This document shows positions 7,283 to 57,235 of a DNA stretch of 64,000 nucleotides, one piece after another. A program made the translations under genes and the position numbers. Location: the NCBI RefSeq assembly GCF_964204645.1, contig NC_134025.1:17831101-17895100 (forward strand). The letters run 5' to 3'. A model generated the notes under the pieces. It searched no databases. It saw nothing but the letters and a program-made list of their open reading frames with translations, and had not been told where the DNA came from. This DNA comes from Tubulanus polymorphus (Eukaryota > Animalia > Nemertea). The number at the start of each line of letters is the position of its first letter. The stretch's first letter is position 1.

Positions 7283-7515
7283 TGTTGAGTTATGTTCTCA
7301 ATTTACTCATCTTAGTGTGAGAGATTGTTTATTGTTTATATACCTGGTGGATGCTGCATGTAACCAAGACACACATCTGTTTGTAATTATTCTTGCATCT
7401 CTTTGTATTGTGGTTAAATAAAGATTAGTACGAGTCAGATAGTCAACGAAAGAAGACGTGTTATAGTTTCTCTGCTCAAGGATTTTCCCCCATCATGGAA
7501 GGACAAAACCCAACA
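7283..7515 (+). repeat. 5' LTR
   Basis: TGTTGAG...CCCAACA; 3 mismatches seen against the 3' LTR. Confidence 0.95.
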
Positions 7516-10500: not shown

Positions 10501-10904
10501 GCGGCAGAAATTGGAATAACTTGCTCCATGATCATTTGATAAACCATGGGTTTGACCAAGGTTTAGTTGACCAATGCCTGTATATAAAATATGTAAATAA
10601 TGAAATGGTGATTATGTTAGTATGGGTTGATGACGTCCTAATTGGTGCAAGTAGAGATGATTTAATGTTTAAAACTAAACAAATGCTGAGCGACAGATTT
10701 AAAATGAAAGACCTGGGGAATATCTCCTGGTTCTTAGGCATTGAATTCGAACAGGGTGACGGTGAAATAACAATGAGTCAGAAAATGTACATAAACAAAA
10801 TCCTTGAAAAATTCCAAATGTCTGATTGCAAACCAAGAAAGACCCCATGTGAACAAAAACTGTCATTTAATGAAAATGCGGAGCGATACGATGCTAAGAA
10901 ATAA
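7495..10904 (+). pseudogene. copia gag-pol polyprotein (disrupted)
   Basis: CCHC knuckle CFRCGKIGHYKKDC, protease LVDCGATSH, integrase HHCC and HTDLAGP, NGVSER, RT YVAKGYSQ, QMDVKTAYLN, LYGLKQSGR, WVDD. Integrase-core deletion with frameshift near 9260, stops at 9684 and 10083, RNase H missing. Confidence 0.95.
7516..7529 (+). promoter_or_regulatory. Primer-binding site (internal tRNA-iMet fragment type)
   Basis: GGTTATGGGCCCAG directly after the LTR, the PBS type known from Drosophila copia. Confidence 0.85.
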
Positions 10905-11279
10905 AGGGAGTGCATACAGATTTTAAGTTGAGAGAGTTTCATCCAAATATTTTTGGTTAGAAAAAACTGCTTTGTTAAAAGTGTACCATTAAACGGCATG
11001 TAAACATTGATGCTACACCCACAATGCTTATAAACACGAAAGCACGTGTTTACTGTGTATAGGGATTTTGTAAATATTGTCAATTATAGTATGCATGGTA
11101 ATAGCGAACATTTTAAAGAGTAGAATATTGACCATTTATGATAGATGATTTAACCAATTACAGATGATTAGTGTTTAATATTTATCTGACGCAAAAGTAA
11201 GATTGCCAAATAATGAATATGTTATGAAATATGAGTTATATGTATTTCAATAATCTATCAATTGAGAATCATGTGGGGG

Positions 11280-11512
11280 TGTTGAGTTATGTTCTCAATT
11301 TACTCATCTTAGTGTGAGAGATTGTTTATTGTTTATATACCGGGTGGATGCTGCATGTAACCAAGACACACATCTGTTTGTAATTATTCTTGCATCTCTT
11401 TGTATTGTGGTTAAATAAAGATTAGTACGAGTCAGATAGTCAACGAAAGAAGACATGTTATAGTTTCTCTGCTCAAGCATTTTCCCCCATCATGGAAGGA
11501 CAAAACCCAACA
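11280..11512 (+). repeat. 3' LTR
   Basis: Direct repeat of 7283-7515, preceded by the purine tract GTGGGGG. Confidence 0.95.
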
Positions 11513-19429: not shown

Positions 19430-19848
19430 AGTAATTGTATAGGCCTATATGTTGTTCTAGACCAAAGGTCGAACGGTCGAGCTCACTAAAAAAAAACAAA
19501 TATTATAAGTAATTTAAAACTATAATATATTTTCATAGCCGTGCGTATTTTAAATTATAAATAAATATTTATTCTAAAATATTAATAATTTTAATTTTAT
19601 AAAGCATATTGTATTAAACCAATTGGTCACGTCGCTTCGCTCCGCTCCCAATTGATTTAATACAATACACAATAAAGAATATATTCATATAATCAAATAT
19701 ATAATAATAATAATAATTATTCGATTATTTAATCTAAAGTACATGCGGCTATGAAAGTATATTATAGTTTTAAATTACTTTTAATATTTGTTTTCTAATG
19801 AGCCCAATCTTTCAACCTTTAATCTAGTACGACATATATACAATTACT
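19430..19848. repeat. Terminal repeat of copy A: ~420-bp imperfect palindrome
   Basis: agtaattgtata...accaaaggtcgaa...caattggtc[GC-rich apex]caattg...ttcaaccttt...tatacaattact; homologous to the reverse complement of 57328-57730. Confidence 0.85.
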
Positions 19849-20089
19849 CTAATATTTTTATATATGGATATTTTGTATATGAATAACTTTAAAAATCAAT
19901 TTCAATAAAAAATTTGTTATTAAAATGGAAGCAAATAAGAAGTACTACTGTCCAACATGTAAAATCAATATAGATAAATCTCAAAAAGCAAGACACAATA
20001 AAACTAAAACACATTTAGAAAATAAATTGAAATTAGAATAAAAAGATGATATATTAGAAACTAAATTAGAAGAATTAAGGTGCAATAAA

Positions 20090-20490
20090 AGTTGATAACT
20101 ATTATAATCCTGAAATATCAAGAGTAGAAATAACAATTGAAGGTATAGCAAATGAAATATTTTGTCAAGGAATTAGAATGATAGTTCAATGGAATCAGAG
20201 AAATTAAAAAACATTTCATGATTGAAAAAAATAAATTATCTGAAGATTGTAATATCAATCAAATTGATTACTATCCCGGCAATAAATATGCATTATGGTT
20301 AGATTTTAGAACAACTGAGGATAACTTAATACTTGGTTCTGGGAAAAAATTACAAAATACAAAAGATGGAATACAATTATTCATGAAAAAGAAAAAAAGA
20401 GGTTTAAATTATAAAATGCGTATTCATATTATATCTGATGCGAAAATAAATATTATAAATTCTCAATTAGATAGTGTTATGTATCAAAAT
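20090..20490 (+). pseudogene. Major capsid protein, C-terminal fragment
   Basis: VDNYYNPEISRVEITIEG matches the end of the copy C capsid gene; continues YALWLDFRTTEDN...GSG...GIQL. Confidence 0.7.
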
Positions 20491-20519
20491 AAAACTTTTA
20501 ATAAAAAATTGTATAATAA

Positions 20520-21290
20520 ATGGATGAAGGTTAAGTATATAAACATATTCCATACAATGATACACATGAAAATAATGATGGTCTATATTATATAATACCT
20601 TGTAATATAGCTTTAATATTTGATCCTATTTTTAGAAATTAAAAAATAAACTTATCGAAATCGATAATAATTTAATTGAAACCGAAAATAATAAAAGTGG
20701 TGTTGTTGATAATTTAAGTAATGAAATTGATAATGATGTTATTCCTTCTACATCTAATAATGTTATTCCTTCTACATCGAATAATGTTATTCCTTCTTCA
20801 TCTAATGGAATAATAAATTATAGTGATAATAGAAATTATTGTGGATATTGTAATGGTGAATTTTCAAACGCTCCAACAAATTGGAATAATCATATGAATA
20901 CAAATACACATATTACTAATGTTATAAAAAGTGTTGGTTTAAGAGAATTTATAGAACATCCATTTAGATATGTCATAAAATTTGTTTCAAATAATAAAGT
21001 AAATGGTAAAGAATTATATAAAGAATTATTAGTTAATTTTTTATTCAAGGATCCTAAAGAATCATGTTTAAACTCATGAAAGACGAATTAGATTTAACTG
21101 ATGCAAAACACATATTAGGGTCTAACACTATGAATTATATGAAACTGAGAATAGAAAATATAGTTACAGGTAAGCGTATTGTTTATGATAATGAAGATTC
21201 TATGAAACTGAAAACAGAAAATAAAGTTACAGCTTACAAACCTTATCTAAGGATCTTTTAGAGTCTGATGATGAAATAGTCTGATGATAA
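20520..21290 (+). pseudogene. Zinc-finger protein (homologue of 51457-52185)
   Basis: Shared KHIPY..GLYY.IPCNIALIFDPIF, CxxC..H..H and GLREFIEHPFRY motifs; frameshifted. Confidence 0.75.
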
Positions 21291-21644
21291 ATAATTCAGA
21301 TAGTAAATATAATATATTGGTTGAAAATACAAAATATATTACATAAATAATAGTTAATTAAGGGGTCTCAAGCATGTATGTATCTTATACGTATTAGATA
21401 CGTATTAATTGAAATAATCTAAATTATAATTTTATTCTTTAAATTTATATTCATATGGAAATTGAAACCTCAGTAATAATTTAGAACCTTTATTATTTTT
21501 TAATTTATTCATATATTTGTTGAAAATTTAAAATATATTGTATGAATAAAAGTTAATTTAAAAAGGGGGTCTCAGGAATTTATGTACCTAATACGTATTT
21601 AATACGTATTTAAAACGTATTATTCGAGATATCTTTTACTGAGG

Positions 21645-22199: not shown

Positions 22200-23271
22200 A
22201 ATTTCATTTGATAAGATCCATTCATTAAATTTATCATCATACCCTTTATATTTCACCAGAGAATACTTCTTACCACGTAACGTTTTTGTTTTGAATCCTT
22301 TTTCTATTTTGTATTCTATAGCATCTGGATTTGGTACAAGTGATAATTCTTGTTCATAAAAATAGCCTAATATTTCTTCTTCTTGTAAATCTTCTAATTT
22401 ATAAACAAAAGGTTTAGTTAATATTATTTTTTTTAAATTTTAAATATTCGTCAGTAAAATTTGGAGTATAACCTTTGTAAAATGTTTCTCTATATTTAGA
22501 TATTCTTACATGTTGTCCAATTTAGGTTCTCCAAAATCATGTGTAACAAATGCACCATATAAATTATTCCAAACAACTTCTGAATTACATTCTTTTCTAG
22601 CTTGTATAGGTTTCATACCAATACTTGAATGTTTAGAATTATTATAACCTTTCACTAAATCATCTAATACATCGATATATTTATATGTTTCATTAGCAGT
22701 AAAATATTTCCATATTCTACTTTTCTTCAATGTTTTATTAAATCTTTCTATAATAGATGCTTTTTTATCTGAGTGTGTAGAAAAATACTCTACATCGTTA
22801 TCAGATAATAATTTTTTTTAAATGTTTATTATAAAATTCTTTACCTTCATCAAATTGTATCTTATCTGGGATAGCTTCTTTAGATATATTTTTAGATGCA
22901 TTAGTAACTTCTATACCAGTTTTGTTTTTAATTCGAATTGACCATGCGTATCTACTGAATATACCTATAACATTTAATATCAAATAATATCCTTTATTGT
23001 ATTCTTCTAAGTTCTTCATATCTGTTAAATCTGCTTGCCATTGTTGATCAATATATGAAACCATAACTTTTCTTGTTAAATAATCTTTATCCATTTTGGA
23101 TCCATTATGGATTTGATATGTGGGTCGACTTTGTAACCATAATTTCAATTCACTATATTTTATATTTTCATTATCAAATCTTATTTTATGCCATAATTCT
23201 GAAACACTAGAATATGATACTTCACTCTCTGGGTTATAATATAAATCTCTTAAATGTTGTTCTTTTTTCAT
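22200..23271 (-). pseudogene. RVE integrase with C-terminal chromodomain, degraded
   Basis: WQADL, FSRYAW, QFDEGKEF, ERFNKTL and YNNSKHSSI motifs. Confidence 0.9.
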
Positions 23272-23624
23272 CTTATTTGATCCATTAATAATAATTTAGA
23301 TTTATTTTCAATGATTTTATCATTTGATTTATTTTCTTGTATAATATCACCATCATCATTTTTATCAAATTTGAATTTATATATCACACCAGAGAATATA
23401 ATTACTGTGATTAATCCAATTGTAATGTATAAGTTCTTATTTCCAGTATTAGAAGAATTAGATGGTTTATCATTCGAATTAATAACAGATAATTTCTGTG
23501 ATTCATTTATATCAGTTAATTTCTTTTTCTTAGCTTTTTTACACTCAGCAGATTTTCTACCTAATTGCTTTGACAACGCAATTTGTTTTTCAGATCTAGG
23601 CTTTTTTTTAATATCATCACTCAT
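23268..23624 (-). CDS. Small basic protein with one transmembrane segment
   Basis: Intact ORF homologous to 32165-32523 and 55062-55544; hydrophobic LYITIGLITVIIFSGVIY. Confidence 0.7.
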   Translation of the reverse strand: MSDDIKKKPRSEKQIALSKQLGRKSAECKKAKKKKLTDINESQKLSVINSNDKPSNSSNTGNKNLYITIGLITVIIFSGVIYKFKFDKNDDGDIIQENKSNDKIIENKSKLLLMDQIR

Positions 23625-24275: not shown

Positions 24276-24850
24276 TTAATAAAGATTCAACGTATTGTTC
24301 ATTATTTTGATCATATTGTTCCATAATTCACTAAATTTCTTTGGTTTTGCTAATTGATCTAAATATAATTGTAAATCTAGTTTGTTTCCTTTCCTAGTAT
24401 TTTCTGCTTTTTCTAAAGGTCTTAAATTTTTCCAATTCCAAATTAACTTTTTATTGTATTCATCATTCATGTTAAATTTCGATATAGGTAAAACATGATC
24501 AATATGAAAATAATCTCCATAATTATCTATATTCATTTCATCATTAAACTGATATATAATCCATGATTTTAAGAATTCATCTGAACAACCCAATAAATTT
24601 GTAAGTGTTTCTGAGTGATTATCTTTACTGAATAAACTTGATAATCTATTGCCTAGACATTTGCTCACTTTAAAATTAAAATCTGTTCGACACCTTTCTT
24701 TTTGGTAATTGTTATTATACACTTTAATATGCTCTCTATTATCATTCATCCATTCTCTCATATATACTTTTTTACAACTTTTACAATAACTTTGCTTACC
24801 ATCTTTAGAATATTTATCTTTATAATATTCCGAGAATTGTTTACTTTACC
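24276..24850 (-). pseudogene. HNH endonuclease, 5'-truncated
   Basis: LLGCSDEFLK...NYG.YFHIDHVLP...NLRPL...N..K.NK; cut off at the junction with the PolB fragment. Confidence 0.85.
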
Positions 24851-27800
24851 AGAAAATTCCAATGAAAGAAAAGAACGATTAGAAAATATGAATGTGGATG
24901 AAATAAAATGTGAAGTTTGTAATGAATTTATAGCAAAAAGGAATTAAAAAAGACATCTCGAATCGCAAAAACATAAACAAAATTTAAGTAATAATGTTTT
25001 AGGAACAGATTATTTTGATGATAAACCTCAACAAGTAAAAAACCAGTTTCAAACACTAAATCTATTTTAAATAAACCTTACATAGAAAATGTTAGAAATT
25101 ATATCGATTCACTAGAAATAAAAGATACAATTGAAATTTTAGAAACATTACGCAGTAAAATTGGACCTGCAGCTATTATATTTAGATTTTTTAAAGGTAC
25201 AACAATAGAAGATTATAATAAATTTATTGAAATCATGGAAAAAATACTAGATTTGGTAACAGATGTTGAATATCCAAAAATTAGTATTTCTGGAAAAGTA
25301 AGTTTTATCAAATCAGAAGAAAAAATGGATTATAATATTCAAACACACTCTGAAGAAATAATTTCAAAAACACAAATAAAAGAGAAATTAGAAAAAATAT
25401 TTAATGAATTTAAACGTCATATTGAGGAAAGATATTTTGAGGGTTCTGGTTTAACATTGAATGAAATTATATTTTTAGATTTGAATATTTATAATACAAA
25501 AAGGAATAAAGCATCAAAAAGTAAAACAATGTTTAAAAATAATTCAAACTTTACAACAGCAAAGGATATTAGAGCATCATCTTATATTAAATTTACATTT
25601 ATGTTTTCTTAATAATTTGTTTTCTATGGTCAATTATTGGTTGTTTACACCCAACAGAAGATATTACGCATAGTTTTAGAATAACAGATTACCGGAAATA
25701 TGAAGCATTATATAAAATTGATCAATATCTTGTAACTATAAAAATGATACCTAAAATAGAAAAAGTTAATAATTTAAAAATGAATGTATTCGAATTAATG
25801 CAATTACCAGAGGCAAAAGGTGAAAATATCAAAGATTATACATTGGAAGCTTTATATTTAACAGAATAATATGATGATGAAAATGTTATAGATTTGTTAT
25901 TTTACAAAAAAGATGAACATGAACATTATATGTGGTTAAAACAAATTGATTTATTCTTTAGAACAACAGAAAGTGATCATCATCGTAAAATTGATCTATG
26001 TAGAAAATGTTTATTTAAATTTATGACAGAGAATGCGTTACTAAAACATAAAGAATTATGTGATAATAAAGGTTTTTGTAAATTAATAATGCCAACAAAA
26101 AAAGATTGTAAGTTGAAATTCATTAATCATAAATTTAAAAATATTGTTCCATTTGTAATTTATGGGGATTTTGAATCGTTGACTAAAGAATTAACTGATC
26201 AAGATAGTAAAGAAATATATAACAAAAAGCAATTTTTAAAATTAATGGATAAAGGAAATGAACTAAATGAAGATATAATTCAAGACCCACCAATTATAAA
26301 TACAATTTAAAAAGTTCATCAAAGAGCTGCTGCTTATGGAATTTATATGAAATCAAATTATACTGAATTATATGAAAGTCAATATATTTCTTTTAGAGGT
26401 GATGATGTAGTAAATAAATTTTGTGATAAAATAATTGAAATAGAAAATGATTTCGCAAAATTATTAAACAAAAATAAAAGAATAGTTATGACAAAAGAAG
26501 ATGAAATTGATTTTAATTATGCAACTCATTGTTGTTACCGTGAAAAACGTTTTTATTCATTTGATAAAAAAGTAACAGATCATGATCATTTAAATTCAAA
26601 ATATCGTGGAGCTGCTCATGAAGATTGTAATTTACAAGCTAAGAAAGTTAATTTCGTGCCAATTTTATTTCGTAATTTATCAGGCTATGATACCCATCTA
26701 TTTATAAAACAATTATCAGGAAAATTGGGCGCAATTAATCAAGAAATAGAAGAATATAATGCTATGAATGAAGCAAATGTAAGAAAATATGATATTACCC
26801 AGAACATTTAGCCGTAGATGATAGTTATTTAAGTGAATGCCAGAAGAAAATAAAACCGAAAGATCATGTTTTTACAGAAAAATTAATACTTACTCAAAAT
26901 AATGAATACAATTATATTGTTCATTATAGAATGTTAAAATTTAATCTAAAATAAGGAACGAAATTAAAGAAAGTACATAGATATATTGAATTTAATCAAT
27001 CGAAGTGGTTAGAAAAATATATAGATTTTAATACTCAACAGAGAACCATATCAAAAACAGATTTTGAAAAAGATTTCTTCAAATTAATGAATAATAGTTT
27101 TTATGGAAAAACATGTGAAAATATTAGAAATAGAAATGCTATTGAATTAGTAAATAATCCTGAACGATTAAGACATTTACAATCAAGTCCAAGACATTTA
27201 GGAAATAAAAGATTCGAAGATTATGTAACCGCAGTAAAATTAAAAAGAACGTCAATGAAATTTAATAAACCTATATTCATTGGTTCAACTGTTTTAGAAA
27301 TATCAAAATTATTAATGTATGATTTTTATTATAATGTTTTACAACCACTTTTTGGGGAAAAGCATATTGAAATATCATATTTTGATTCTGTTACAGCTGA
27401 CACCCCAATATTATTAAAATGTAATGATTAAATATTGATAAGAAGAATTTCAGAAATAATTCCAAAGCAAAATGAACGTTATATTTCATATGGTGAAAAA
27501 GAATTAATACAAATAAATGGATTAATGGATGTTTGGACAAGAAATGGATGGAAAAAATTAAAGAATATTATTAGGCATAAAACAAATAAGAAAATCTATA
27601 GAGTTAGAACTAAATTAGGGTTTGTAGATGTTACAGAAGATCATAGTTTAATTAAACGAAATGGTGATGAAATAAAACCAACTGATATAAAAATTGGAGA
27701 TGAATTATTACATAAAACATTTTACCCAAGAATGAATCATATGTCATTTGATGAAATAATTGATAATATTTATAATATAGAACCCAAAACATTGGTAGAA

Positions 27801-28852
27801 AAAGAATATTTCATTAAAGGATTTTTTTATGGGTGATGGTTCAGCAGGTGTGTATAAATATGTTAGTGGAACTAAATATTGTTGGTATTTATGCAATCAA
27901 GATTTGAAATTATTAGAAAGAATAAAGAAATACTGTGAAGTAGTTTATTCGCACAAAGTTTTTAAAATCATGGATGTTATGAAATCATCAGCAGTTTATA
28001 GAATACTTGTAAATAATCCTAAAAATTTTGCTATAAAATATAATGATGAATTCTATATTCATGCAATAGTGAAAAGTAATACTTCGACCAAAGAAAAGAT
28101 AGTGCCAGATTATGTATTAAATGCAGTTATGAGTTCTCCAGTAATAAGATTTGCACAAAAAGGAAAAGTTGTAATAAGTGGTTTAAATGTGTTGTGTCAT
28201 TCACTAGGTTTTAATATGCGTTTTGAAATTATGAAAGATTAACCAAATTGTTTTAAGTTAACACATGTAGAAAAAGAATTAACTGAAGACGTTAGAGATT
28301 TATTTAAAAAATATTACCCAACAGATTATGTTTATGATTTATCAACTGAAGATGGAACATTTAACTGTGGATTTCCATTAATTTGCTTAAATACTGACGC
28401 CTACATACTAAAAATCAAGACAAATGACATAACAAAAGACTTAAAAACATTAAAACATCATATTGACTTTAGCAAAAGATCCAAAAGATCATGAATTATT
28501 TAGCAATGATAATAAAAAAATTCCTGGTAAGTTTAAAGATGAATTAGGGGGTGATGAAATGATTGAATTTGTTGGGATAAAAAGTAAAATGTATAGTTAT
28601 AGAACAAAAGATCATGAAGCTAAAAAGTTAAAAGAAAAAAGCACGTGGTTGACAAACATATAGAATTTCAAGATTATATAAAGTGTTTATATAACTCAAT
28701 TGTAATGAAACATAAAATGAATTGTTTAAGATCAGAAGATCACAAGATGTACATTAATGAAGTTGAAAAAAACTAGTTTAAATCCATTCGACGATAAGAG
28801 ATATATTTTGGATGATGGAATAAAAACATTAGCTTATGGCCATTTAACATAA
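24851..28852 (+). pseudogene. Protein-primed family B DNA polymerase (pPolB) with intein, degraded (piece A')
   Basis: ZnF N-terminus, VIYGDFES, EndoVII-like DHDHLNSKYRGAAHEDCN, FRNLSGYD, KLMNNSFYGKT, YFD|intein|TDA, GKFKDE, KMYS, FDDKRY. Many stops and frameshifts and a deletion near 26805. Confidence 0.93.
27387..28392 (+). mobile_element. Intein with LAGLIDADG homing endonuclease in PolB motif C (degraded)
   Basis: Block A SVTADTPILL, block B VDVTEDHSL, LAGLIDADG-like FIKGFF(M)GDGS, block F YVYDLSTEDGTF, terminal CLN followed by Thr. Absent from the PolB of copy B. Confidence 0.92.
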
Positions 28853-29809
28853 AATCAAGATCATCATACTCGAAATCACTACTGGTTTTTTTATGAAAAG
28901 GATGAAATAGTACGGCGCGTACGGCCCGACTTCCTCCACCAAAAATTCGTGCTTTCAACATGTTTCAGTCATTGTCGTGGGCCGGCTATAAACAACTACA
29001 AGAAAGTGATTCATCCTTACCTTTTACGTTGTTGTTCACTAGAGCTTATACACAACACAACAATACACAAACAAGTTTATAGCGAGAAATCAATTCGAGC
29101 GCATGTAAATACAAAATGGTGTCTGAGCAGTAGCACGGTACGCACTAAATTCAAAATTACTTTATTACCAATATTTTCTAAGCATAGTTTCATTGGTTTC
29201 CTCATTAATTAAATTTAGACCAAACTAAATCATAATATTTTTAATAACCTACAAGTACATTATGAACTTTTGAATGGTCTAACCCAGTATAGTCCCCCGT
29301 GATATAGAAATTCTCGGAGCCCTCCTTTATTTACTTACTAAATGACGTCACAAACTGTTATTTCGCCGGTGCTTGTTGTCTAACAATTCAATTCAATTCT
29401 TTATTTACAGTAACCTAATAAGTAATTTTAAGTTTCAAATAGGATGGAAAGTACATTTAGACAATCTGTTGGTTCAGAGAGACCGTTATTACAGTATCAA
29501 CATACATTTCGTTTCGAAGCTGTCAGTTGCCGAATCTGAATGAAGATGAATTTTATTTGACGAAATCGGCGGAAAATATATTATAATAATAATAATAATC
29601 AACAGAATTTCAAGAGGGTTTTCGACGAAAGTCAGAAAACCCTAAATAGGGATAATATGAAAATTTATTTTTCATTTTTTACTCACTCGCCCCTTCAACC
29701 TTTAACCTGAACCCCTATTATCCATATTACTCTTAAAATATTCATATATATGAATAACATATAAACGAATAACTTCTAAATCAATTTAGTAAAAAAATTT
29801 GATATTAAA

Positions 29810-30461
29810 ATGGAACCAGAACAATCACAAACTATCAATATTACAAATAATACTGGCGTTATAAATATATACTATAAGAAGTGTTCTACATGTGAATTAG
29901 ATAAATTAGCTATAACAGAATTTAGTAAGTGTAAGATTAGCAAAGATGATTTTCAATATTGCTGCAAAACTTGTATTAAACTATATACTAAGCAATATCG
30001 AGCAGATAATAGAGAACATTTTAACGATTATATGACAGAATATATGAGAAGAAGATATAAAAAAGATCTTAATTTAAAATGAAACAACGTTTAAGGTCTA
30101 GATTAACACAATTATTCAACAAAGAAACGCATTCAACAACACTATCTTATTTGTTGGGTTGTACAGATGAATTTCTCAAATCATGGATAATATATCAATT
30201 CGACGATAAAATGAATATAGATAATTATGGTGAATACTTTCATATTCATCATGTGTTGCCGATTTCTAAATTTAACATGAATGATGAATACAATCAGAAG
30301 TTAATATGGAATTGAAGAAATTTAAGGCCTCTTGAAAAGAAGGAAAATATAATTAAATCTAATAAACTAGACTTTCAGTTATATTTAGATCAACTGGATA
30401 AAGCAAAGACATTTGTTGAATTATGGAATTCAACACAGAATGAAAAATACGTTGAATCTTA
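29810..30461 (+). pseudogene. Zn-finger/HNH endonuclease
   Basis: Homologue of 52664-53314 with a frameshift near 30075 and a stop at 30313. Confidence 0.85.
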
Positions 30462-32523: not shown

Positions 32524-32529
32524 AATAAG

Positions 32530-33614
32530 ATGAAAAAAGAACAATATTTAAGAGATTTATATTATAACCCAGAGAGTGAAGTATCATATTCTAGTGTTAG
32601 AGAATTATGGGATAAAATTATATCTGATAAAGAAAATATAAAATATAGTGAGTTAAAATTATGGTTACAAAATCAACCAACATATCAAATCCATAACAAA
32701 ATGGATAACAATTATTTAACAAGAAAAGTTATGGTTTCATATATCGATCAACAATGGCAAGCTGATTTAATTGACATGAAGAACTTAGAAGAATACAACA
32801 AAGGATATTTCTGGATATTAAATGTTATAGACATATTCAGTAGATACGCATGGTCAATTCCAATCAAAAATAAAACTGGTATAGAAGTTACTAATGCATT
32901 TAAAGATATATTTAAAGAAGCTATTCCAGGTAAGATACAATTCGATGAAGGTAAGGAATTTTATAATAAACATTTTAAAAAACTATTATCTGATAACGAT
33001 GTAGAATATTTTTCGACTCACTCAGATAAAAAAGCATCTATTATAGAAAGATTTAATAAAACATTGAAAACTAGAATGTGGAAATATTTTACTGCTAATG
33101 AAACATATAAATATATCTATGTGTTAGATGATTTAGTGAAAGGTTATAATAATTCTAAACATAGTTCTATAAATATGAAACCTATACAAGCTAGAAAAGA
33201 AGATAATTCAGAAATAGTTTGGAATAATTTATATGGTGCGTTTGTTACACATGATTTCGGAGAACCTAAATTAAAATTGGACAACATGTTAGAATATCTA
33301 AATATCGAAAAACATTTTATAAAGGTTATACTCCAAATCTTACTGAAGAAATATTCAAGATTAAAAAGATAATATTAACTAAACCTTTTGTTTATAAATT
33401 AGTAGATTTAAAAGTTGAAGAAATATTAGGTTATTTCTATGAACAAGAATTATCACTTGTACCAAATCCAGATGAAATAGAATACAAAATAGAAAAAGTA
33501 TTGAAAACAAAAACTCTTAAAGGAAAAAAGTATTCTTTGGTGAAATATAAAGGGTATGATGATAAATTTAATGAATGGATTTTATCTAGTAAAATTAAAA
33601 GAATAAATGAATAA
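32530..33614 (+). pseudogene. RVE integrase with chromodomain
   Basis: DDE core (WQADL, FDEGKEF, IERFNKTLK); frameshift near 33275; chromodomain YKIEKVL...LVKYKGYDDKFNEWI. Confidence 0.93.
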
Positions 33615-34215
33615 AGATTTATTTATATTTGAACCACATAATATGTTAGTTACTGGGGTAACCAACTGTGGTAAAACGCATTTCATATCAGATTTGTTAG
33701 AAACTATTTATAAGAATCATTTTGATAAAATAATATTATTCTGTCCCACTTATTAAATGAATAAGACATATAATAGGGATATAGTTCAGATAAACAAGTT
33801 TATTATATTAGATCCTAAAACAGTAAAAGAAAATTTAGATAATTGTATAAAAATAGCAATTGATATTTATAAAGGTTCAAATACATTATTCATTATAGAT
33901 GATTGTGCAAATGTACATGATTCAAAAGTTAGAGAAAGTGAACTATGCTATTTAGCTTTCTCTGGGAGACATTTTGGGATAACAACATGGGTTTTAAATC
34001 AAAAATATAATTCAATTGTTAAAGATTTTAGGGAGAATATAAGATTTTTAGTATTATTCTACAATAAAGATAGAAAATCTATGCAACAATCATTGGAAGA
34101 AAATCAAATTATACCTGAATTACATGATGAATATATGAATAAATTAAAGAATAATAAATGTTCCAAATTACTTCTAAGGCTTCAATTTCCATATGAATAT
34201 AAATTTATAAAATAA
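33607..34215 (+). pseudogene. Packaging ATPase
   Basis: Walker A GVTNCGKT, Walker B FIIDD, GRH..I and Q motifs; stop at 33754. Confidence 0.9.
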
Positions 34216-35882: not shown

Positions 35883-37716
35883 TCATAATCCATTCTCTTT
35901 TGTTTCTTCTCTTTTAAATATTAAGTATTCATCTAAATTGCAACCATAAGCAACTGTGTGTATACCATCATCTAAAATATATCTTTTATCATCAAATGGG
36001 TTTAGACTTATCTTCTCTATCTCTTCAATAAACATTTCATGATCTTCAGATCTTAAACATTTCATCTTGTGTTTTCTAACTTTTTCATTGAATATACAAT
36101 TGATGTAATCTTTGAAATGAATATTCTTTTCTACTACACTTTTGGTTATTCCTTTTAACTTTTTAGCTTCATGAGTTTTAGTTCTATAACTATACATTTT
36201 AGATCGAATACCTATAAATTCTATCATTTCTTCACCTCCTAATTCATCTTTGAATTTACCAGGCACCTTTTTATTATCATTGTTAAACAATTCATGATCT
36301 TTCGGATAATTACTAAAATCAAAATGATGTTTTAATGTTTTTAAATCATCTGTTATGTTATTAGTTTTTATCTTTAATATGTAAGAATCTGTATCAAAAT
36401 ATAAGATTTCTATATGCTTTTCTCCAAAATGAGGTTGTAATACGTTATAATAGAATCTTTGATATTTCTAAAACTGAAGCACCGACATAGACTGGTTTAT
36501 TAAATTTCATAGAAGTTCTTCTCATTTTAACTGCAGCTAAATTTTCATCAAATATTCTGTTACCTATGAACTTAGGATATGTTTGTAAATGTCTAATTCT
36601 TTTACCAGTACTAACTAACTCAATATCATTTCTATTTCTGATATTTTTACAAGTCTTACCATAGAATGCATTATTCATTAACTTGAAGAAATCTTTTTCG
36701 AAATCAGTTTTAGCTTTAGTTCTCTGTTTGGTGTTAAAATCTATATATTTTTCTAACCATTTAGATTGACTGAATGAAATATATCTATGCACTTTTTTAC
36801 AATCATTCCTTGATTCAAATAAAACTTCAACATTCTATAATGCACTACCTAATTATATTTATCTACCTGAGTTACCATTAACTTTTCTGTATGAATATGA
36901 TTTTCAGGTTTAATTCTTCATGTGTTACAGTTTTATGTTCGGGACAGTATGCTAGATTTCTAGATTTAAATTTAATGTTTTCAGGGTATTCCAAGTCTAC
37001 AACAAAGAAGTAACCAGTCTCTGAATCATCTGCAATATCTAGAATTCTTTTAGAATTAGATTATTTGCATCTATATATAATAACTTATATCCAGGATTAT
37101 CATTTACATTGAAATATCTATCACCTAATACACCTGAAACTCCTCCTCTTATAGATTTTTCAAATAACAATAATTGATCTATATTTGTTAATAAATCCAT
37201 TTTTATATCTGAAAATTTTAAACCACCATCCCAAGTTAATCCTGGGCTAGCATAACAATGACATGGATCAATATTAAAATATTTTCGATTTACATCTCTA
37301 AACCTTTCAAATATATATGTTAATAATAATATATCTGATTTTAAATATGAATCTACTAATTGTCCATGATTTTTTATTTTGAAATGATTCCAAATATTCA
37401 ATGTTCTATTATAAACTTCATATTTAACATATTCGGATCATAAATCATCATAGAATTGTTCTTTTAGTAATTGAGTCATATTAAAATCATTATGATTTTT
37501 ATAAAATGAATATGGAATTGCTCCTTTATATCTCATTAAATGAAAATCATCATCATTTGGATAGTGTTGCTTTAATATTTTTAATTCATCATCAACTAAA
37601 GATTTTGACCAATTATCTAATGAACTACTTAAAAATTTATATGAATCTATAAATCTTAGACATCCAAATTGGAAAGATATATAATTCTCAGATGTTTTAG
37701 CTAACATTTTAAATTC
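35883..37716 (-). pseudogene. Protein-primed DNA polymerase B, intein-free allele, 5'-truncated
   Basis: RFIDSYKF, YLKSDILLL, IRGGVS, YIDANNL, KLMNNAFYGKT, an uninterrupted LYFDTDSY (~36382-36405), GKFKDE and FDDKRY. Confidence 0.93.
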
Positions 37717-38494
37717 CAGCTGCTTCTCTAGCAACGAACTAAAATATTCAATTAAATCATCATACAATATTCTGGCCAACCAGGTTATGGTATAAGGATC
37801 TGTGTCCATTGGGAAGATTCAACTTGACAAAGCCACAGCAATAAACTTCAAAAAATCCTTTGGATTTAATGTTAACTGTTCCTACAACATATGCATATGA
37901 AATCAACCGATTCGAACTAATTTTTACAAAGCTAAAAAATGCTCTGAAGTGCTTCAGATTACACTAAATACTTACGGCTCCTGATTATAAATCATTCTGA
38001 ACAGCCCTGTTAGAAGCTCCTCAGCTTCTTGCTGATGACGAATATCGCCACCAGGAATAATGTCTGAAAGCAATGAAAGGCAATTAAAGCTAACACCAAA
38101 CTGCAACTTTTGCACGAAACATCTGTAACCCCTTAAATGTCCTTATCTTATTCTAAATAAATTTGAGTCTATGCCCCAGTAGTCAGAAATGAACTTGGAT
38201 ATTGCATTCTTCATACAGTTTAAAAGAGGAATTAAGACTTACCATTTACCAGATAAAAAAGCTCTTTGTGGTAGCCACTAAAGCAGTGGTCTAGTATAAA
38301 AATTATGCAATCATCGACTGCATCTACAACAGGAACATGAAAATTATTCAATGTTCTACTTGCTGCAAGACTACATTTTATATTATCATCGAATGTACAT
38401 GTATCTTAAAAAAAACCTTGAAATTACACAGCATAAATGATTTCTTTTTAACATGATCACGATTGGTAGAACACTATATCCGTGTTGACGCGAT

Positions 38495-39419: not shown

Positions 39420-42400
39420 ATCTAAACTCTAACTTTTTACACCTTGTTCCCTTCAGATAACGTAAAACACGTTTTACAATACTTAAGGCTCGTTCAGTTG
39501 GACTAGACATAAACTGAGACAGCTTGGTAAAAATGTAAGAAATATCTGGTCTAGTGCCAGTCATAATCTAAATAAGACTCCCTAACATCTCACGATATAA
39601 CTATGTTTTTTTTCCAGTTAACAAGATATAAGATTCATCACTCAAGAGTTTAGTATAAGATAACTCACACGGTGTCGATCTAGATTTAGATTTACAGTTT
39701 TTCATATTAAATTTCTCAAGAATTCGATCGATATACAGAGTTTGGTTCATTGAAATATCATCCACTTCATGTGTAAATTCCATACCAAGAAACCATAATA
39801 TACTTCCTAAATCTTTCATCTTGAACCTAGTTCCTAAAGAACTTTTAATAGAGTTTAATGCATCATTACAATTAGTAGCTATTGTAATATCATCGACCCA
39901 TATAACTAGAACAGTCCATGATTAACCATCGAACTTAGTATAAACACAATTATCACTTTGTGATTGAGTAAAACCCAGTGAAATAAATAATTCGTGCAGT
40001 AAAACTTTCCAATTATGACCACTCTGTCTTAATCCGTAGATGGATTTCTTTAATTTTAAAACTACTCGTTCACCAGATTCACCTTTTACCTCAGACCCTT
40101 TAGGTTGTTCAATACACAGTTCCCTCTCTACAGGGGCATTAAGGAATGCAGACTTCCATCTGATGGATTTTTAAATCATGCTGTACTGCTCATTGTATTA
40201 GCATTCTAATCGAGGTAAGTCGAGCAGTTGGAGAGAAAGTACCATTTTCACTGTAGTCAACTCCTAAAACCTGATTGTAACCCTTTGCTACATATATAGC
40301 TTTGTATTGTTCATTGCCCTCTGAGTCATTTTTAATAGTGTACACCCATCGTGCGGTTCCTGAACTTCGCTGAAAAAGCTGAATCACTGAAACGCTGAAA
40401 CGCTGAAATAAAAACGCTGAAATTTCAGGGAATTTCCGAAAAACGCCGAAATTTCAGGGAATTCCCGAAAAACGCTGAAATCGTGCTAGGTACCAACAAT
40501 ACACGTTTTGAAATATTTTCCGGGCCGGTGTCCGCTGCCGAGTCCTGAACCGTGTTTTAGTCTCTACCTTCGGTTACAGAGACACGCATGGACAGTATGT
40601 GTGGAGTATACTTCTAGAGGGCCACTTGTTGGACAAATTAATTCGCTTGGAATCCGGATTTTTAATGCATACAGGCAGCATAATGAGGAAAACCCATACA
40701 CAAACCGTGCAAGCCAACTTAAACACTATGCTCCATATTCCCTGCAAGACGCAAAATATCTTATTTGAACGTTCATGTATAAAACATGGAGCAACTTTTC
40801 TTTTGTCAACACGTTGATGGGCGACGGACTATGTCACTATGGTATTCTCTGAAGGAGGTAAATTAAATTTGACAGCTAGTTATATAAATGATGCAGCTTT
40901 TGGACAAAAGGGATCTAACTAAATTTCTTTTTAATTCACTGTGGAATGGAATGGAATGGATTGACGCCAATGGCATGCAGTAGGCCCCTACGTATGGGTC
41001 ATACTGATTAGCGTCAACCAATTAATCTAAATCGGGCTAACCATTCAACAACTGTGAATAATTTATTTGCTGTGGCGTGATAATAATTAGTTTTTTTGAA
41101 GAAATGACATACCAACTGTTAGAAAAATGTACCGATTCTTATTTTTAGACTACTACTGAATCTATAAAAGGAGGAGTCATAGACAAAGTTGATTTGCTTA
41201 GCTGGTGACACTTCTTGTCAAGTACATCATCTCAAGTACTGGGTGTTTTGTAAGTTTAATTTCAGTATTTATTTACTAAGTGCTGTTCTCTCGGACCTCA
41301 GTGCTTTCAAACTAGGCCCACCCCATAGGCTATATAGTCCAGGGTGTATTAGCCACTATTCTTTTATATCCGACTAAAATGCACCTTTTTCTATTTTTAG
41401 ATTCAGGCTTAGAATGTGCAAATTTTTTGAGATACTGAGAAATCAGATGGCACCAGTAAACTTCAACTGCGAAATTTGCAGCAGGATAGCTGAACGACAC
41501 AATTTTTAAAAATAAAATGGCTATTCGAATGCTATTTCAATAATAACTTGATTCAACCAGAGAGAAATAAGTCAATTGCGGATGTACAGTACACCCACTT
41601 TTCTTCCCTGTTTCCTGGTACCAAATTTTTAGTCTTAAGCTAAGCGATATTCTAAGGTATACTAGTGGCTTTCATTAGAATATGAAGCAATGGAACCAGA
41701 ATTCTAGCCAGAGTTAAGCGAACTATTGATTCTGATATAATGTAAGAACTGATTTCCTTTGTATACTCTTGCAGAATGTGTTATGTATTATTTCAAGCTG
41801 TTAAATAATATAGTTAGACAAATGTCCAATTATTGGATCTTTCTTGTTGACTCGTTTAATTTTGTGAGTTAAGATTTCCAGTCAATCCACAATGTGCAGT
41901 GCCTAGCCTTCATCTACACTAAAGCCATGCCTGTGTATGGGAAAAAAATATCGGTCGACTCCTATAGGCCAGACACATCAAAGCATGCAATACATTGCAG
42001 ATAGTAGTCTACGGCAAGTCGAAAGTAAACCAGGTTTTACCCCGTACCCCACCCGGGAACAAAGACACTTAAAGATTCCTTCCTCCTTGTAGAAATTGTA
42101 GAAATATGACACCCAATTGTAGCAATGCTAAGTACAGTATACTATGACGGTTGAACCTTTATTAACGAATTTCAATGACACCGAAAATAGAATCAAAATA
42201 ATCATTAGTTCCATGCTAGCACTTAATTTGGGTTATCAGGTTCAGCCTAACTGTACTTTCATTCAGCTACTACTTGTATGAGACTTGGCAATGATAAGTT
42301 GCAAGAAATCACCAAACATAAGAAAAAATATTGTGAATTAATATTACTGTGATTAAGAATTTATTCAAATGAAGTGATAACTTCATTGTTAGATCGTACC

Positions 42401-43900
42401 GGTATATGCACATACAACTATGGCAAAAAACACATCTAACAATCCACGCAATCCGCAATCGATCAAGTCGATCATGACGACGACCTTAAGGCATGTCTCT
42501 GTAACCGAAGGTAGAGCATAAAACACGGTTCAGGACTCGTCAGCGGACGACGGCCCGGAAAACATTTCAAAACGTGTATTGTCGGTACCTAGCACGATTT
42601 CAGCGTTTTTCGGGAATTCCCTGAAATTTCGGCGTTTTTCGGAAATTCCCTGAAATTTCAGCGTTTTTATTTCAGCGTTTCAGCTTTTCAGTGTTTCAGC
42701 TTTTTCAGCGAAGTTCAGGAACCGCCCATCGTGCCCTAATCGTGCCCGTCTAACTAATCCATTTTCTCGTGTACCATCCGCCAGTTCGATATAGTGTTCT
42801 TGTGGATTAAATGTAGTATCCAAATTAATAAACTTCGATTCATCGATGATTATATGTGCCGTCGCACCAAAGTCGACGAGCATTCGATCGATAACAGTAC
42901 CCACACTTTATCCGTTATCGATGCTTGCTTGAAAGACGAAAGCACCGGCAACATTTTCCTCGGATTCCGTTTCCACTGATTTAGCCGCTGCACATTTATT
43001 TTTTGCGACAGTATTTAGTATCGTGTGTGGTACTACGACATGTAGTACGCCAATGATTATGTTGACCGGTTTTTGGTTGACGACAATATGCAGCCCGGTG
43101 GCCACGTTTCCCGCAGTTATAACATGTCATCTGCCGATCTCCCTGCTGGTTCTTATTTTGTTGTCGTACATCAACGGTTAAAATATTGTCATTCCTGATA
43201 GCAGTTTTAATTGTTTCCTCATAATTACGAAACACAACTTTGAATTCTGCAAATGTCGTTAACTCTTTTTGTGTAATAACAGTACAAAAAGATTTATACC
43301 CGTCTACTGGTAGACCTTTCATAGTCATAGAAATTAACAGAGCGTCACTTACGGTTTCACCTGCCGATTTTGACAAGGCAGCGACAGTCTCCGCTCTCAG
43401 GATATAATCCGTTACTGTCTCTTCCGAATGGGATTCTTGCTGAGCGTTGTAAGTACATGCACTGTATAGAGCGAAATTATCTTCGGTTTCCCGGTACTCA
43501 AATTATACTGTCGTAAAATCTTTAACGCGCTATATCCACCATCTTTCGCATCCCGCATTATTAACGAAAGGCTTCGGTCATCCACACACTGGACTAATTG
43601 GGCATACGCATCTTTATTCTTCTCGGGTTCTGCGGTCGTCACGGTATTCATTGTCACGACATTATGCAACTTTAAGATACGCATAGACCCGAGGAATTTT
43701 TCCTCCCGAAGTTCACGCTTCTGTTCATTTCCATCGAAGATCGGTTGCCGCGTCGCCCTGGGCCCATAACCTGTTGAATCCAAAGGCATATTTCCTCGAT
43801 GGAAGCCGATAATCCTCAGTGTGTGAGAAAAGGTAGCAAACACGTCTTTTCAGTGTGATAATTCAGCCGGAAGAGAGAGGAATCCATTATTGCGAAATAA
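39420..43900 (-). mobile_element. Degenerate Ty1/copia element (gag-PR...RT; integrase deleted)
   Basis: PBS GGTTATGGGCCCAG on minus (43758-43771) after ...CAACA; gag STGYGPR and CYNCGKRGH, protease LVDFGATAH, RT RWVYTIK, YVAKGY and MKDLG. Ends are approximate. Confidence 0.88.
40354..42724. mobile_element. Non-autonomous DNA transposon, probably MULE-like
   Basis: ~235-bp TIRs starting CGGTTCCTGAACTTCGCTGAAA; 9-bp TSD CCCATCGTG (40345-40353 and 42725-42733); no transposase ORF. Confidence 0.85.
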
Positions 43901-50372: not shown

Positions 50373-51424
50373 ATGAGTGGGAGTTACATAAATCCTTCTA
50401 GGAATTCAAGAATATATAATGCTATCAAAGCAGAGAGGTCTCATCATATAATTACTCATAATCCTTCTAATATTAATCCTGATGAAACTTTATATGTTAG
50501 AATCCCTCGATTAACACAAAATACTTTTTATGTTCCAAGTAGTATTTATTTATCAGCTGATATAAAAGTAACTGGCCATGATAATAATTATGTTGTTGAA
50601 AATGTTGGAAGATACTTGATTAAAAAATTAACTATAAAGATTGGACCAGAAACAGTTATCTCATTAGATGATTATAATTTATTTATGCATTATAAAGATT
50701 TATGGTTAACAAAAGAAAATAGAAATAATATGATATTTCAAGGCATCCAATCTGAAAACCATAATAAATTAAGATCAGAAGCTAATATTGCAATAATAAC
50801 TAATGCTACAGATGATTTGATAAAAAAAGATTTATGGAAGCAAACATAAAATTCCATTAGATTTTGAATTGATAAATAATAATGCACCTTTCTATAAATA
50901 TGCAATTCAAGAAGATATTATATTTGAAATAACATTTGCTCCTGTTAATGAAATTGTCTTATCAAGTGTGGTTAAAGATATGGGTTATAAATTATCGAAT
51001 ATATGTTTAAAATATGATACAGTAACTGATGAAAATATTTCAAGTATAATTCAAACTCAATACAATCAAGGATTTTCATTATTATATGATTATATTGATA
51101 AATTTAAAACTGTAACTATAAATGCAAATGATGAAATAATTAATGAGAATATTAACTTCCCAAGAAGATCTATTAAAGGTATATTAATATTTTTTACCAT
51201 TGCAACATATACTAATGGCGCAATAAATGTTGATAATTATTATAATCCTGAAATAACAAAAGTAGAAATAACTATCGAAGGAATAGCAAATAAAATATTT
51301 TGTCAAGGAATGAGAATGATAGACAAAGAATAAAGGAATCAAAAATTTTAAAATGCACATTTATATTATATCTGACGCGCAATTAAATATTGTAAATTCA
51401 CAATTAGATAGTGTTATGTATTAA
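50373..51424 (+). pseudogene. Major capsid protein (double jelly-roll, inferred)
   Basis: IITHNPSNI...LYVRIPRL, Y.LSNI.L.YD and NINFPRRSIKGILIFF motifs resemble invertebrate Polinton MCPs; frameshift near 50830 and deletion near 51325. Confidence 0.75.
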
Positions 51425-55069: not shown

Positions 55070-55544
55070 TGACGTTAAGAAAAAGGCTAGATCCGAGAAA
55101 CAAATTAAATGGGCAAGAGAATTAGGTAAAAGATCTTCAGAATTAAAAAAAGCTAAGAAAAATAAATTAACTGATATAGAGAAACAAATTAAATGGGCAA
55201 GAGAATTAGGTAAAAGATCTTCAGAATTAAAAAAAGCTAAGAAAAATAAATTAACTGATATAAATGAATCACAGAAATTATCTGATATTGATTCGAATGA
55301 TAATACATCTGATTCTTCTAATGCTGGAAGAAATTATAAATTATATATTACAATTGGGTTAATCACAGTTATTATATTATCCGGTGTAATATATAAATCA
55401 AAATTCAAATCTGATGATAAAGATGATTCCAATGATGATCGGAAACTTAGTTATCCGTGTACAGACAATAAACCTATTATACCAGAAAATAAGTCAAATC
55501 ATAAAGCTTTTGAAACTAAATCTAAATTATTATTAATGGATTAA
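55062..55544 (+). CDS. Small basic transmembrane protein with an internal 28-aa duplication
   Basis: EKQIKWARELGKRSSELKKAKKNKLTDI twice; one TM segment. Confidence 0.75.
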   Translation: MSDDVKKKARSEKQIKWARELGKRSSELKKAKKNKLTDIEKQIKWARELGKRSSELKKAKKNKLTDINESQKLSDIDSNDNTSDSSNAGRNYKLYITIGLITVIILSGVIYKSKFKSDDKDDSNDDRKLSYPCTDNKPIIPENKSNHKAFETKSKLLLMD

Positions 55545-55550: not shown

Positions 55551-56631
55551 ATGAAAAAAGAACAATATTTAAGAGATTTATATTATAACCCAGAAAGTGA
55601 AGTATCATATTCTAACGTTTCAGAATTATGGAATAAAATTAAATCTGAAAATAGTGATATAAAATATAGTGAATTAAAATCATGGTTACAAAACCAACCA
55701 ACATATCAAATCCACAAGAAAATGGATAAAACTTATTTAACAAGAAAAGTTATGGTTTCATATATCGTTCAACAATGGCAAGCAGATTTAATTGACATGA
55801 AGAACTTAGAAGAATACAACAAAGGATATTTCTAGATATTGAATGTTATAGACATATTCAGTAGATACGCATGGTCAATTCCAATCAAAAATAAAACTGG
55901 AATAGAAGTAACAAATGCTTTTAAATCTATATTTAAAGAAGCTATTCCAGATAAGATACAATTTGATGAAGGTAAGGAATTCTATAACAAACATTTCAAA
56001 AAACTATTATCTGATAACGATGTTTTTTTTAACACACTCAGATAAAAAAGCATCTATTATAGAAAGATTTAATAAAACATTGAAAACTAGAATGTGGAAA
56101 TATTTTACTGCTAATGAAACATATAAATATATCGATGTGTTAGATGATTTAGTGAAAGGTTATAATAATTCTAAACATAGTTCTATAAATATGAAACCTA
56201 TACAAGCTAGAAAAGAAGATAATTCGGAAATAGTTTGGAATAATTTATATGGGGCGTTTGTTACACACGATTTCGGTGAACCTAAATTTAAAATAGGACA
56301 ACACGTAAGAAAGTCTAAATATCGAAAAACATTTTATAAAGGTTATACCCTTAAATTTTACTGAAGAAATATTCAAGATTAAAAAGATAATATTAACTAA
56401 ACCTTTTGTTTATAAATTAGAAGATCTAAAAGATGAAGAAATATTAGGTTATTTCTATGAACAAGAATTATCACTTGTACCAAATCCAGATGAAATAGAA
56501 TACAAAATAGAAAAAGTATTGAAAACAAAAACTCTTAAAGGAAAAAGTATTCTTTGGTGAAATATAAAGGATACGATGATAAATTTAATGAATGGATTTT
56601 ATCTAGTAAAATTAAAAGAATAAATGAATAA
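55551..56631 (+). pseudogene. RVE integrase with chromodomain
   Basis: Same motifs as 32530; stop at 55833 and several frameshifts. Confidence 0.92.
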
Positions 56632-57235
56632 AGATTTATTTATATTTGAACCGCATAATATGTTAGTTACTGGAGTAACCAATTGTGGTAAAACACATTT
56701 CATATTAGTATTGTTAGAAACTATTTATAAGAATCATTTTGATAATATAATATTATTTCGTCCTACTTATGAAATGAATAAAACATATAATAGAGATATA
56801 GTTAAGATGAAAAAGTTTATTATATTAAATCCTAAAACAGTAAAAGAAAATTTAGATAATTGTATAAAAATAGCAATTGATGCTTATAAAGGATCAAATA
56901 CATTATTCATTGTAGATGATTGCGCAAATTTACATGATTCAAAATTGAGAGAAAGTGAGTTATGTTATTTAGCTTTCTCTGGAAGACATTTTGGGATAAC
57001 AACATGGGTTTTAAATCAAAAATATAATTCAATTGTTAAAGACTTTAGGGAGAATATAAGATTTCTAGTTTTATTCTACAATAAAGATAGAAAATCTATG
57101 CAACAATCATTGGAAGAAAATCAAATTATACCTACTGAATTATATGATGAATATATGAATAAATTAAAGAATAATAAAGGTTCAAAATTATTACTGAGAC
57201 TACAATTTCCATATGAATATAAATTTATAAAATAA
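56624..57235 (+). CDS. A32/FtsK-like packaging ATPase, intact ORF
   Basis: GVTNCGKT, FIVDD, GRHFGI, NQKY and FREN. Confidence 0.92.
   Translation: MNKDLFIFEPHNMLVTGVTNCGKTHFILVLLETIYKNHFDNIILFRPTYEMNKTYNRDIVKMKKFIILNPKTVKENLDNCIKIAIDAYKGSNTLFIVDDCANLHDSKLRESELCYLAFSGRHFGITTWVLNQKYNSIVKDFRENIRFLVLFYNKDRKSMQQSLEENQIIPTELYDEYMNKLKNNKGSKLLLRLQFPYEYKFIK

Follow-up and report, generated by a model that had tools for sequence, protein, structure and literature searches.

What is an insert of 1,006 bp doing inside the catalytic motif of a transposon polymerase, and how did it come to be there? We addressed this question for a stretch of 64,000 nucleotides from Tubulanus polymorphus (NCBI RefSeq assembly GCF_964204645.1, contig NC_134025.1, positions 17,831,101 to 17,895,100, forward strand), which we call the window and within which all coordinates are given. 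The insert lies in polymerase A, a decayed protein-primed family B polymerase of a Polinton (Maverick) element. An original prediction, made from the sequence alone, had read it as a dead intein that homed into this lineage during co-infection with a large DNA virus. Our analysis supports a partly different history: with a probability of about 0.78, we interpret the insert as a dead homing-endonuclease intein of the Polinton motif C, likely of old origin in the giant-virus pool, that likely spreads among Polinton copies by homing.

On the plus strand, the codons for YFD occupy 27378-27386, the insert begins at 27387 with SVTADTP, its last codon (Asn) lies at 28390-28392, and the extein resumes at 28393 as TDAYILKIK. 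The insert (27387..28392, plus strand) splits polymerase motif C, YFD/TD, between Asp and Thr, with the slash here and below marking the insertion point. Polymerase B, a paralog on the minus strand of the window, reads YFD/TDSYILKIK without interruption. Self-comparison of A with B by blastn gave one block at 26849-27386 (76%) and another at 28391-28839 (77%). In B they lie end to end at 36393/36394, so the 1,006-bp insert is exact, as the original reading of an insertion in A and none in B had it.

Four marks of a class 1 intein are in place, as predicted: Ser at position 1, TxxH in block B, a terminal Asn, and Thr at position +1. The N-terminal splicing region (27387..27650, plus) holds Ser1, block A, and block B with TxxH at 27633-27644, and aligns with residues 2-88 of TIGR01445. 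It is followed by a LAGLIDADG endonuclease region (27808..28242, plus), in which two motifs are damaged, and by the C-terminal splicing blocks F and G (DYVYDL...N) with the +1 Thr at 28393-28395 (28324..28395, plus). The N-terminal piece, with X at the stop, scored 35.8 bits against TIGR01445 intein_Nterm (NCBIfam; cut-off 24.5, E 1.2e-8), so the resemblance to inteins is not a chance one; against the Pfam intein family, the broken pieces scored weakly (19.1 and 12.1 bits, below cut-off). With X at the breaks, the window intein is 57% identical to the intact 354-residue intein of P0001, a relative recovered in our searches (labels of this form denote proteins), and its N-terminal part is 42% identical to that of the Mimivirus PolB intein.

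Damage is spread across this copy. In-frame stops stand at 27429-27431 and 28240-28242, and a frameshift at about 27820-27830 crosses the first LAGLIDADG-like block (GFF.GDG); as it stands, the intein is out of frame. The second block (GFY..DG) is gone, with a 20-residue gap near 28125 relative to P0001 and P0201, in agreement with the predicted deletion. Of the two acidic LAGLIDADG motifs, the window copy has the first frameshifted and the second deleted. The penultimate residue is Leu, which had been flagged as unusual where His is expected. Not one of 259 full non-redundant relatives has Leu there, though the extraction allowed it, and the residue is therefore likely decay and no family trait; a residue other than His is in itself ordinary (His 157, Lys 90, Ser 11, Arg 1). 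Judged by its sequence, the insert is confirmed as an intein of class 1 layout and motif-C (pol-c) type, in a copy that is dead, as the original prediction had concluded.

A search with the C-terminal piece of the window intein returned five proteins, the best of which, P0001, is an unbroken 1,693-residue protein-primed polymerase (PF03175) with its 354-residue intein at the same motif-C site. The insertion in intact relatives is in frame, with lengths of 1537 versus 1191 residues and a difference (346) equal to the intein length. Three further protein searches and two contig scans yielded 494 intein-like stretches. By their flanking motifs, 27 of these lie in Polinton-type polymerases, many of them near-identical cluster members, and several more open reading frames (ORFs) start too near the junction for such classing. 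The remaining stretches lie mostly in RNA-primed family B polymerases, including PolB of Mimivirus (P0073), whose intein (1053-1403) occupies the same site as the window intein. Together with position III of archaeal PolI, it represents the pol-c allele (PMC549080; here and below, statements from cited papers refer to the portions available to us). The site shared with giant-virus inteins had been correctly predicted.

Among full non-redundant inteins, whose extraction required a terminal Asn, 256 of 259 begin with Ser, and the C-terminal arrangement of the window copy recurs in these 259. Of nine full Polinton inteins, eight match both LAGLIDADG patterns and seven the TxDH pattern. Profile searches had been proposed as a check on the original prediction and bore it out: TIGR01445 was above cut-off in the window copy, and the Pfam families LAGLIDADG_3 and Hom_end were above cut-off in intact relatives. 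The predicted structure of the P0001 intein (63-row alignment, mean score in the predicted local distance difference test, pLDDT, 92.7) best matched, among solved structures, the endonuclease-bearing inteins 7qsu, 2cw7, and 1dq3 and also I-DmoI, and its best named matches among viral models were giant-virus polymerases. It is predicted to be a splicing (Hint) domain with a LAGLIDADG nuclease; folding concerned this intact relative, not the window copy.

The contig scans gave few Polinton relatives. Viral contigs scanned with the single Polinton proteins P0003 and P0149 gave no relative. A profile scan found 361 viral loci. The best 80 were 32%-42% identical, and judged by the flanks none of these 80 lay in a Polinton polymerase; in metagenomes, the best 80 of 372 loci included a single one, L081, that did. 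An Atlas search with the P0006 intein gave only leads below 0.9.

The intein family is polymorphic in the host genome, with intein-plus beside empty copies. We used raw DNA reads (run X5, 12% read, 85% likeness) that are labelled with the same species and likely come from a different individual. Read depth was 172-261 across 27444-28139 of the intein, 9 at 28140-28226, just past the deletion, and 102-150 in the final 170 bases. Within a 20-kb stretch, depth in the lowest 664-base bin was 4.2, and on the polymerase of the empty paralog it was 450-540. These values correspond roughly to 40-60 intein-plus copies and twice as many B-like ones if the lowest bin is single-copy, and that bin may be repeated or hemizygous. 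The count of copies that had been proposed was thus obtained from read depth; Logan contig depths were not used for it. At the first stop, 161 of 236 reads differ from the window copy, as do 143 of 204 at the frameshift, and at 28125, 126 reads continue into other sequence. Three of the window copy's four lesions are therefore missing from most reads, and the damage is for the most part its own. Another 15 reads bridge the empty site in A-like copies, and with the empty paralog B they bear out the predicted polymorphism. As a separate observation, the drop in depth suggests that 28140-28226 has diverged unusually far in the window copy or came from elsewhere.

If the damage in this copy is its own, from where did the family come? 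We reduced 411 inteins to 266 at 80% identity, limiting tree rows to inteins of 300-500 residues plus seven partial Polinton rows; the archaeal pol-c inteins of InBase are not among the rows. FastTree (266 rows) placed 14 of 16 Polinton rows, the window's among them, in one clade at 100, with a sister group of 29 rows at 96 that includes giant-virus polymerases, one of them named ChoanoV1. IQ-TREE (59 rows, the short P0227 left out) agreed, with 13 Polinton rows at 100 and the sister at 92. Three sister-group rows (P0039, P0048, and P0273) form a clade, and P0039 and P0273 strongly match a phage DNA polymerase family, which we take to be T4-like. Their nesting among giant-virus inteins suggests exchange between phages and giant viruses, an observation separate from the Polinton question.

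The window intein's closest rows (P0201, P0001, P0194, and P0180) are 57%-64% identical to it, and the best non-Polinton inteins, from giant viruses or phages, only 36%-39%. Polymerases within the Polinton clade are 37%-45% identical to each other. The intein and polymerase trees share three main groups, with many of the polymerase rows partial, and this match suggests that the intein is old in protein-primed Polinton polymerases. These comparisons bear directly on the idea that the intein homed recently, and in this lineage only, into the animal's Polintons from a large DNA virus presumed to have co-infected it. The outside relatives are indeed inteins of giant-virus type at the same motif, the host has plus alleles beside empty ones, and inteins occur in animal-infecting iridoviruses (PMC5784728). 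However, with the nearest relatives being Polinton inteins, in a clade that spans such different polymerases, we consider a recent event of this kind very improbable. The viral part of the predicted origin stands, since outside Polintons the closest relatives are PolB inteins of giant-virus type, interspersed with some from T4-like phages, but a separate entry into this lineage does not: the intein belongs to a Polinton clade with 100% support, the three groups of which mirror the polymerase tree. Entry into Polintons looks old rather than recent in this lineage.

The direction of that entry is suggested by diversity. Among the non-redundant rows, 250 of 266 are non-Polinton, and giant-virus-type polymerases hold far more of the family's diversity. 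Because of this much greater diversity outside Polintons, and with a root that is arbitrary, we infer transfer from giant viruses to Polintons. Flow could also have been reversed or shared, with Polinton-type viruses acting as reservoir or go-between to giant viruses and T4-like phages, or with several entries into Polintons. The Polinton clade is sister to the GFPLI-type giant-virus group rather than nested deep inside it, phage inteins are nested among giant-virus ones, and the inteins of P0178 and P0196 fall outside the main clade in both free trees while their polymerases fall inside the main polymerase tree. Two independent entries seemed likely from the free trees and were dropped after an approximately unbiased (AU) test, which gave them no support: a single origin for all 15 Polinton rows was not rejected (p 0.554), and the constrained tree was 2.6 log-likelihood units (lnL) better. 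With the AU result and the preponderance of non-Polinton rows both against it, we regard reversed or shared flow as improbable. On the sequence evidence, the intein likely reached Polintons long ago, from the giant-virus pool, at the same site. The named giant viruses of the sister group, ChoanoV1 for example, presumably infect protists, so entry need not have occurred in an animal cell.

Two further observations concern the wider family. Tandem inteins in motif C, two host residues apart (YGD/intein/TD/intein/SNY), occur in the giant-virus-type polymerases P0008, P0010, and P0014, in the last at 762-1096 and 1099-1468. Inteins of the same family also occur in the type II topoisomerases P0373, P0363, P0348, and P0377 (Pfam check for P0373 and P0363), at a look-alike D/TDG site, suggesting a jump to a non-allelic target.

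Has the intein moved since it entered Polintons? The inteins of P0018 and of the P0006 family speak to this question. The P0018 intein is 44%-46% identical to those of P0001 and P0006, with 46% for P0001, and nested in the Polinton clade, and the P0018 exteins gave no blastp match to P0001 or P0006 exteins at E 1e-3. This pattern is best read as a jump of the intein between two distant Polinton polymerase types.

The P0006 cluster has 136 members, of which 40 were covered, and the 15 listed (contigs of 57 kb to 1 Mb) comprise 7 full-length intein-plus copies, 5 intein-free copies, and 3 fragments; we note that evidence from this cluster is at the protein level and from a host other than the window's. 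Away from the junction, intein-plus and intein-free polymerases are about 98%-99% identical. On its upstream side they differ by 0.5%-5.6%, and haplotypes recur in both classes, as at three sites where P0006 agrees with the empty P0152. Across informative sites in residues 1-1034, there were zero fixed differences between the 7 plus and 5 empty copies. A stretch of 50 residues that includes the junction holds ten fixed differences, and 0 of 200,000 random draws produced so tight a grouping. The plus-copy flank YMD/TDSFVLSVNTKD (YMD/TDSFVLSVN) is common to P0165 and P0167, and P0165 with three partial kin is just 71%-76% identical to P0006 upstream. Empty copies that are 95%-99% identical to P0006 have other residues at the junction flank. 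The flank thus appears to travel with the intein and not with the polymerase, an indirect indication of the kind expected from double-strand-break repair with co-conversion. Such repair is established for homing endonucleases.

TDA for TDS in motif C was observed both in the window (28393-28401) and in P0201, which are intein-plus, and concerns P0148, P0149, P0151, and P0152 as well; one empty copy has CDS. TDA stands in 4 of 5 empty P0006-family alleles. The notion that TDA marks a nuclease-resistant empty allele was rejected as a general rule, since in the window family the plus copies (A and P0201) have TDA and the empties TDS.

The same data can be set against a simpler history, in which the intein is an old passenger that entered once, was inherited vertically and lost precisely many times, has a nuclease that no longer homes, and mixes by ordinary recombination. 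The match of three intein groups to three polymerase groups would follow from this, the AU test leaves one origin for the 15 Polinton rows standing, and in the P0006 family intein divergence exceeds extein divergence. Yet P0018 has an intein of the same clade although its polymerase is of a type that does not align, junction flanks track the intein and not the polymerase background, and both nuclease motifs are retained across inteins only 42%-47% identical. Precise intein loss is also rare without homing cycles. We therefore consider vertical inheritance without homing unlikely, though somewhat less so than reversed or shared flow.

Our interpretation of an old, giant-virus-derived intein that homes among Polintons has several points against it. 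The tree was rooted on an arbitrary, weakly supported outgroup, and the sister group has a Shimodaira-Hasegawa-like approximate likelihood ratio test (SH-aLRT) value of only 92. Agreement of intein and polymerase trees is also explained by vertical descent with loss, and empty alleles escaping the nuclease could partly account for the flank pattern. Divergence among plus copies is 2.1% in the intein and 0.6% in the N-extein, with no sign of a very recent sweep. Lastly, short reads cannot show any single host copy whole.

How would such an intein persist and spread? In an intact copy, the precursor polymerase would be translated with its catalytic motif split. Ser1 would attack with the aid of the TxxH block, the +1 Thr would take over, and the terminal Asn would cyclise; predicted splicing would restore D/TD[SA], which the polymerase needs to work. 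With the catalytic motif split, splicing would be obligatory, and purifying selection on the splicing residues would be expected as a result. Once released, the nuclease with its two LAGLIDADG motifs would cleave another Polinton copy at its empty motif-C site, whether that copy lies in a chromosome or a replicating episome. Repair templated on a plus copy would then insert the intein with a few flanking codons. Homing may proceed between chromosomal copies or between replicating virus genomes. In a silenced or broken copy, such as that in the window, splicing and nuclease parts would both decay.

A bolder version of this interpretation is that Polintons hold a resident intein lineage that is still homing between dispersed chromosomal copies in animal germlines, cutting empty ones, and that has also jumped between two very distant polymerase types. 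We hold this version only tentatively, at somewhat less than even odds. If true, the lineage would amount to a natural gene drive among the members of a transposon family, parasitic on a parasite and cutting host chromosomes, and would be the first homing intein resident in the nuclear DNA of animals.

Both polymerases sit in a cluster of Polinton copies that are all decayed or truncated. This AT-rich cluster (22%-31% GC) covers about 19.5-57.7 kb of the window, and matching segments at 19461-19823 and 57353-57705 may be element ends. Polymerase A (25025..28846, plus; tblastn with P0001 and Pfam) has many stops and frameshifts and is without about 280 residues (P0001 697-976, motif A included) at about 26793, where 129 host reads connect to B-like sequence at 37713. 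It also has an endonuclease-VII/HNH-like insert at 26540-26640 (plus; Pfam E 0.16, and 3e-8 in P0021), which resembles the HNH insert described for nematode Polintons. Polymerase B (35943..37818, minus), likewise decayed, has its empty site between 36393 and 36392 and matches DNA_pol_B_2 at E 1.7e-5, just below the score cut-off.

Other genes of the Polinton set are scattered over several decayed copies, with integrase and ATPase above cut-off in the window and protein-primed PolB (pPolB) above cut-off in P0001. A broken integrase of the same element as polymerase A (22509..23295, minus; rve E 1.9e-5) has 82%-84% DNA identity to the window's other two copies. A neighbouring copy holds an integrase with chromodomain and then an A32-type packaging ATPase (32524..34212, plus; rve 37.6 bits, Chromo E 2.8e-5, Pox_A32 25.8 bits). 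A third copy has a likely major capsid protein (50373..51330, plus; Capsid_N E 5.9e-4, below cut-off) and another A32-type ATPase (56624..57232, plus; Pox_A32 44.7 bits). The capsid region matches 20079-21593 at the DNA level, and a 3' capsid fragment lies at 20079-20592. No maturation protease family matched in the domain scan of 39 window ORFs, and broken or shorter ORFs lie outside that scan.

The window contains several further features. Three related free-standing ORFs at 24279-24845 (minus), 29780-30460 (plus), and 52664-53311 (plus) have an HNH-like motif by eye and no Pfam match at E 0.01, and an exact, in-frame tandem duplication of 84 bp lies inside a Polinton ORF (55095-55262, plus). 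A Copia-type retrotransposon (7283-11512, plus) has 233-bp long terminal repeats that are 98.7% identical and in-frame stops in pol. The GC-rich element at 57684-61554 (plus) has a Pro-rich ORF, a weak SGNH/GDSL esterase-like ORF, an ORF that is reverse-transcriptase-like by eye, and a weak GIY-YIG match, and is likely Penelope-like with an extra esterase domain. At 40353-42725, 235-bp inverted repeats (96% alike) flank 1.9 kb; reads cover this region at a depth of about 1,000 or higher, and it is likely a non-autonomous DNA transposon present in many copies. One ORF outside the Polinton elements groups, in a weak check, with clusters of eukaryotic, mostly animal, SWIM-type proteins.

An intein in this setting would be useful in several ways. 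The intein surveys, in their available portions, list none in animals or Polintons (PMC5784728, PMC10710043). In a multi-copy host element, plus and empty targets share one nucleus, so invasion, flank conversion, target escape, and decay can be counted inside one genome, a task that single-copy host genes make difficult. The family records gene traffic among giant viruses, T4-like phages, and Polintons, whose common ground is no more than a short catalytic motif, and is an unusual marker for contact between Polinton lineages. Annotation pipelines see intein-bearing polymerases as too long or broken. The new inteins and LAGLIDADG nucleases on offer would likely work in animal cells.

The original prediction had also raised a possible earlier report of intein-like inserts in Mavericks. 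One speculative sentence, on other nuclease inserts, partly answers to this, suggesting that homing-endonuclease inserts in polinton pPolBs "result from intein invasions" (PMC11071308). Beyond this sentence, no description of an intein in a Polinton was found in the full-text literature searched; supplements, Repbase, and subscription journals were outside its scope. The available portions of PMC12220804, PMC3671162, PMC5718144, PMC13768754, and 10.64898/2026.06.19.733378 contain nothing on Polinton inteins. A nematode Polinton paper describes HNH and VSR domains in pPolB, with 0 occurrences of the word "intein" in the text available (10.1101/2023.08.22.554363). Like the window family, these are nuclease domains in a Polinton polymerase, and polymerase A itself has an HNH/endonuclease-VII-type insert. 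We take the nematode paper to be the source of the sentence on intein invasions. Those inserts occupy other positions in the protein, and in the portion available a splicing domain is not described for them, whereas the window-family intein has a full splicing domain and a LAGLIDADG nuclease, lies in the catalytic motif, and has empty alleles.

Nuclear inteins are listed for fungi and amoebae, for a green alga, for choanoflagellates, and for an apusozoan, and viral ones for four giant-virus families and unclassified viruses (PMC5784728). With the nuclear inteins, the Polinton intein shares its setting in a eukaryotic nucleus. For those of fungi, amoebozoans, and Anaeramoeba, viral vectors and intragenomic spread have likewise been proposed (PMC5784728, PMC10710043). 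Earlier nuclear inteins are mostly from unicellular organisms (PMC10710043) and lie in host genes of fungi or unicellular eukaryotes, with animals unlisted in the portions available, whereas the Polinton intein lies in an endogenous virus-like element of what is likely an animal. The element itself is of a known kind: like Polintons (Polintoviricetes), the window has pPolB, an rve integrase with chromodomain, an A32 ATPase, and a likely capsid protein.

The closest counterparts are the pol-c inteins, with which the Polinton intein shares the xD/TD insertion point, Ser1, TxxH, two LAGLIDADG blocks, the Asn end, the +1 Thr, and a length of about 350 residues. Known pol-c hosts are RNA-primed polymerases of giant viruses or archaea, whereas the Polinton inteins sit in the protein-primed polymerase (PF03175) of an integrating, multi-copy element, form their own clade, and have plus and empty alleles that coexist as dispersed copies in one nuclear genome. 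The window intein is a real but dead member of a branch of pol-c inteins that is specific to Polintons and apparently undescribed; the kind of element is known, the kind of host is new.

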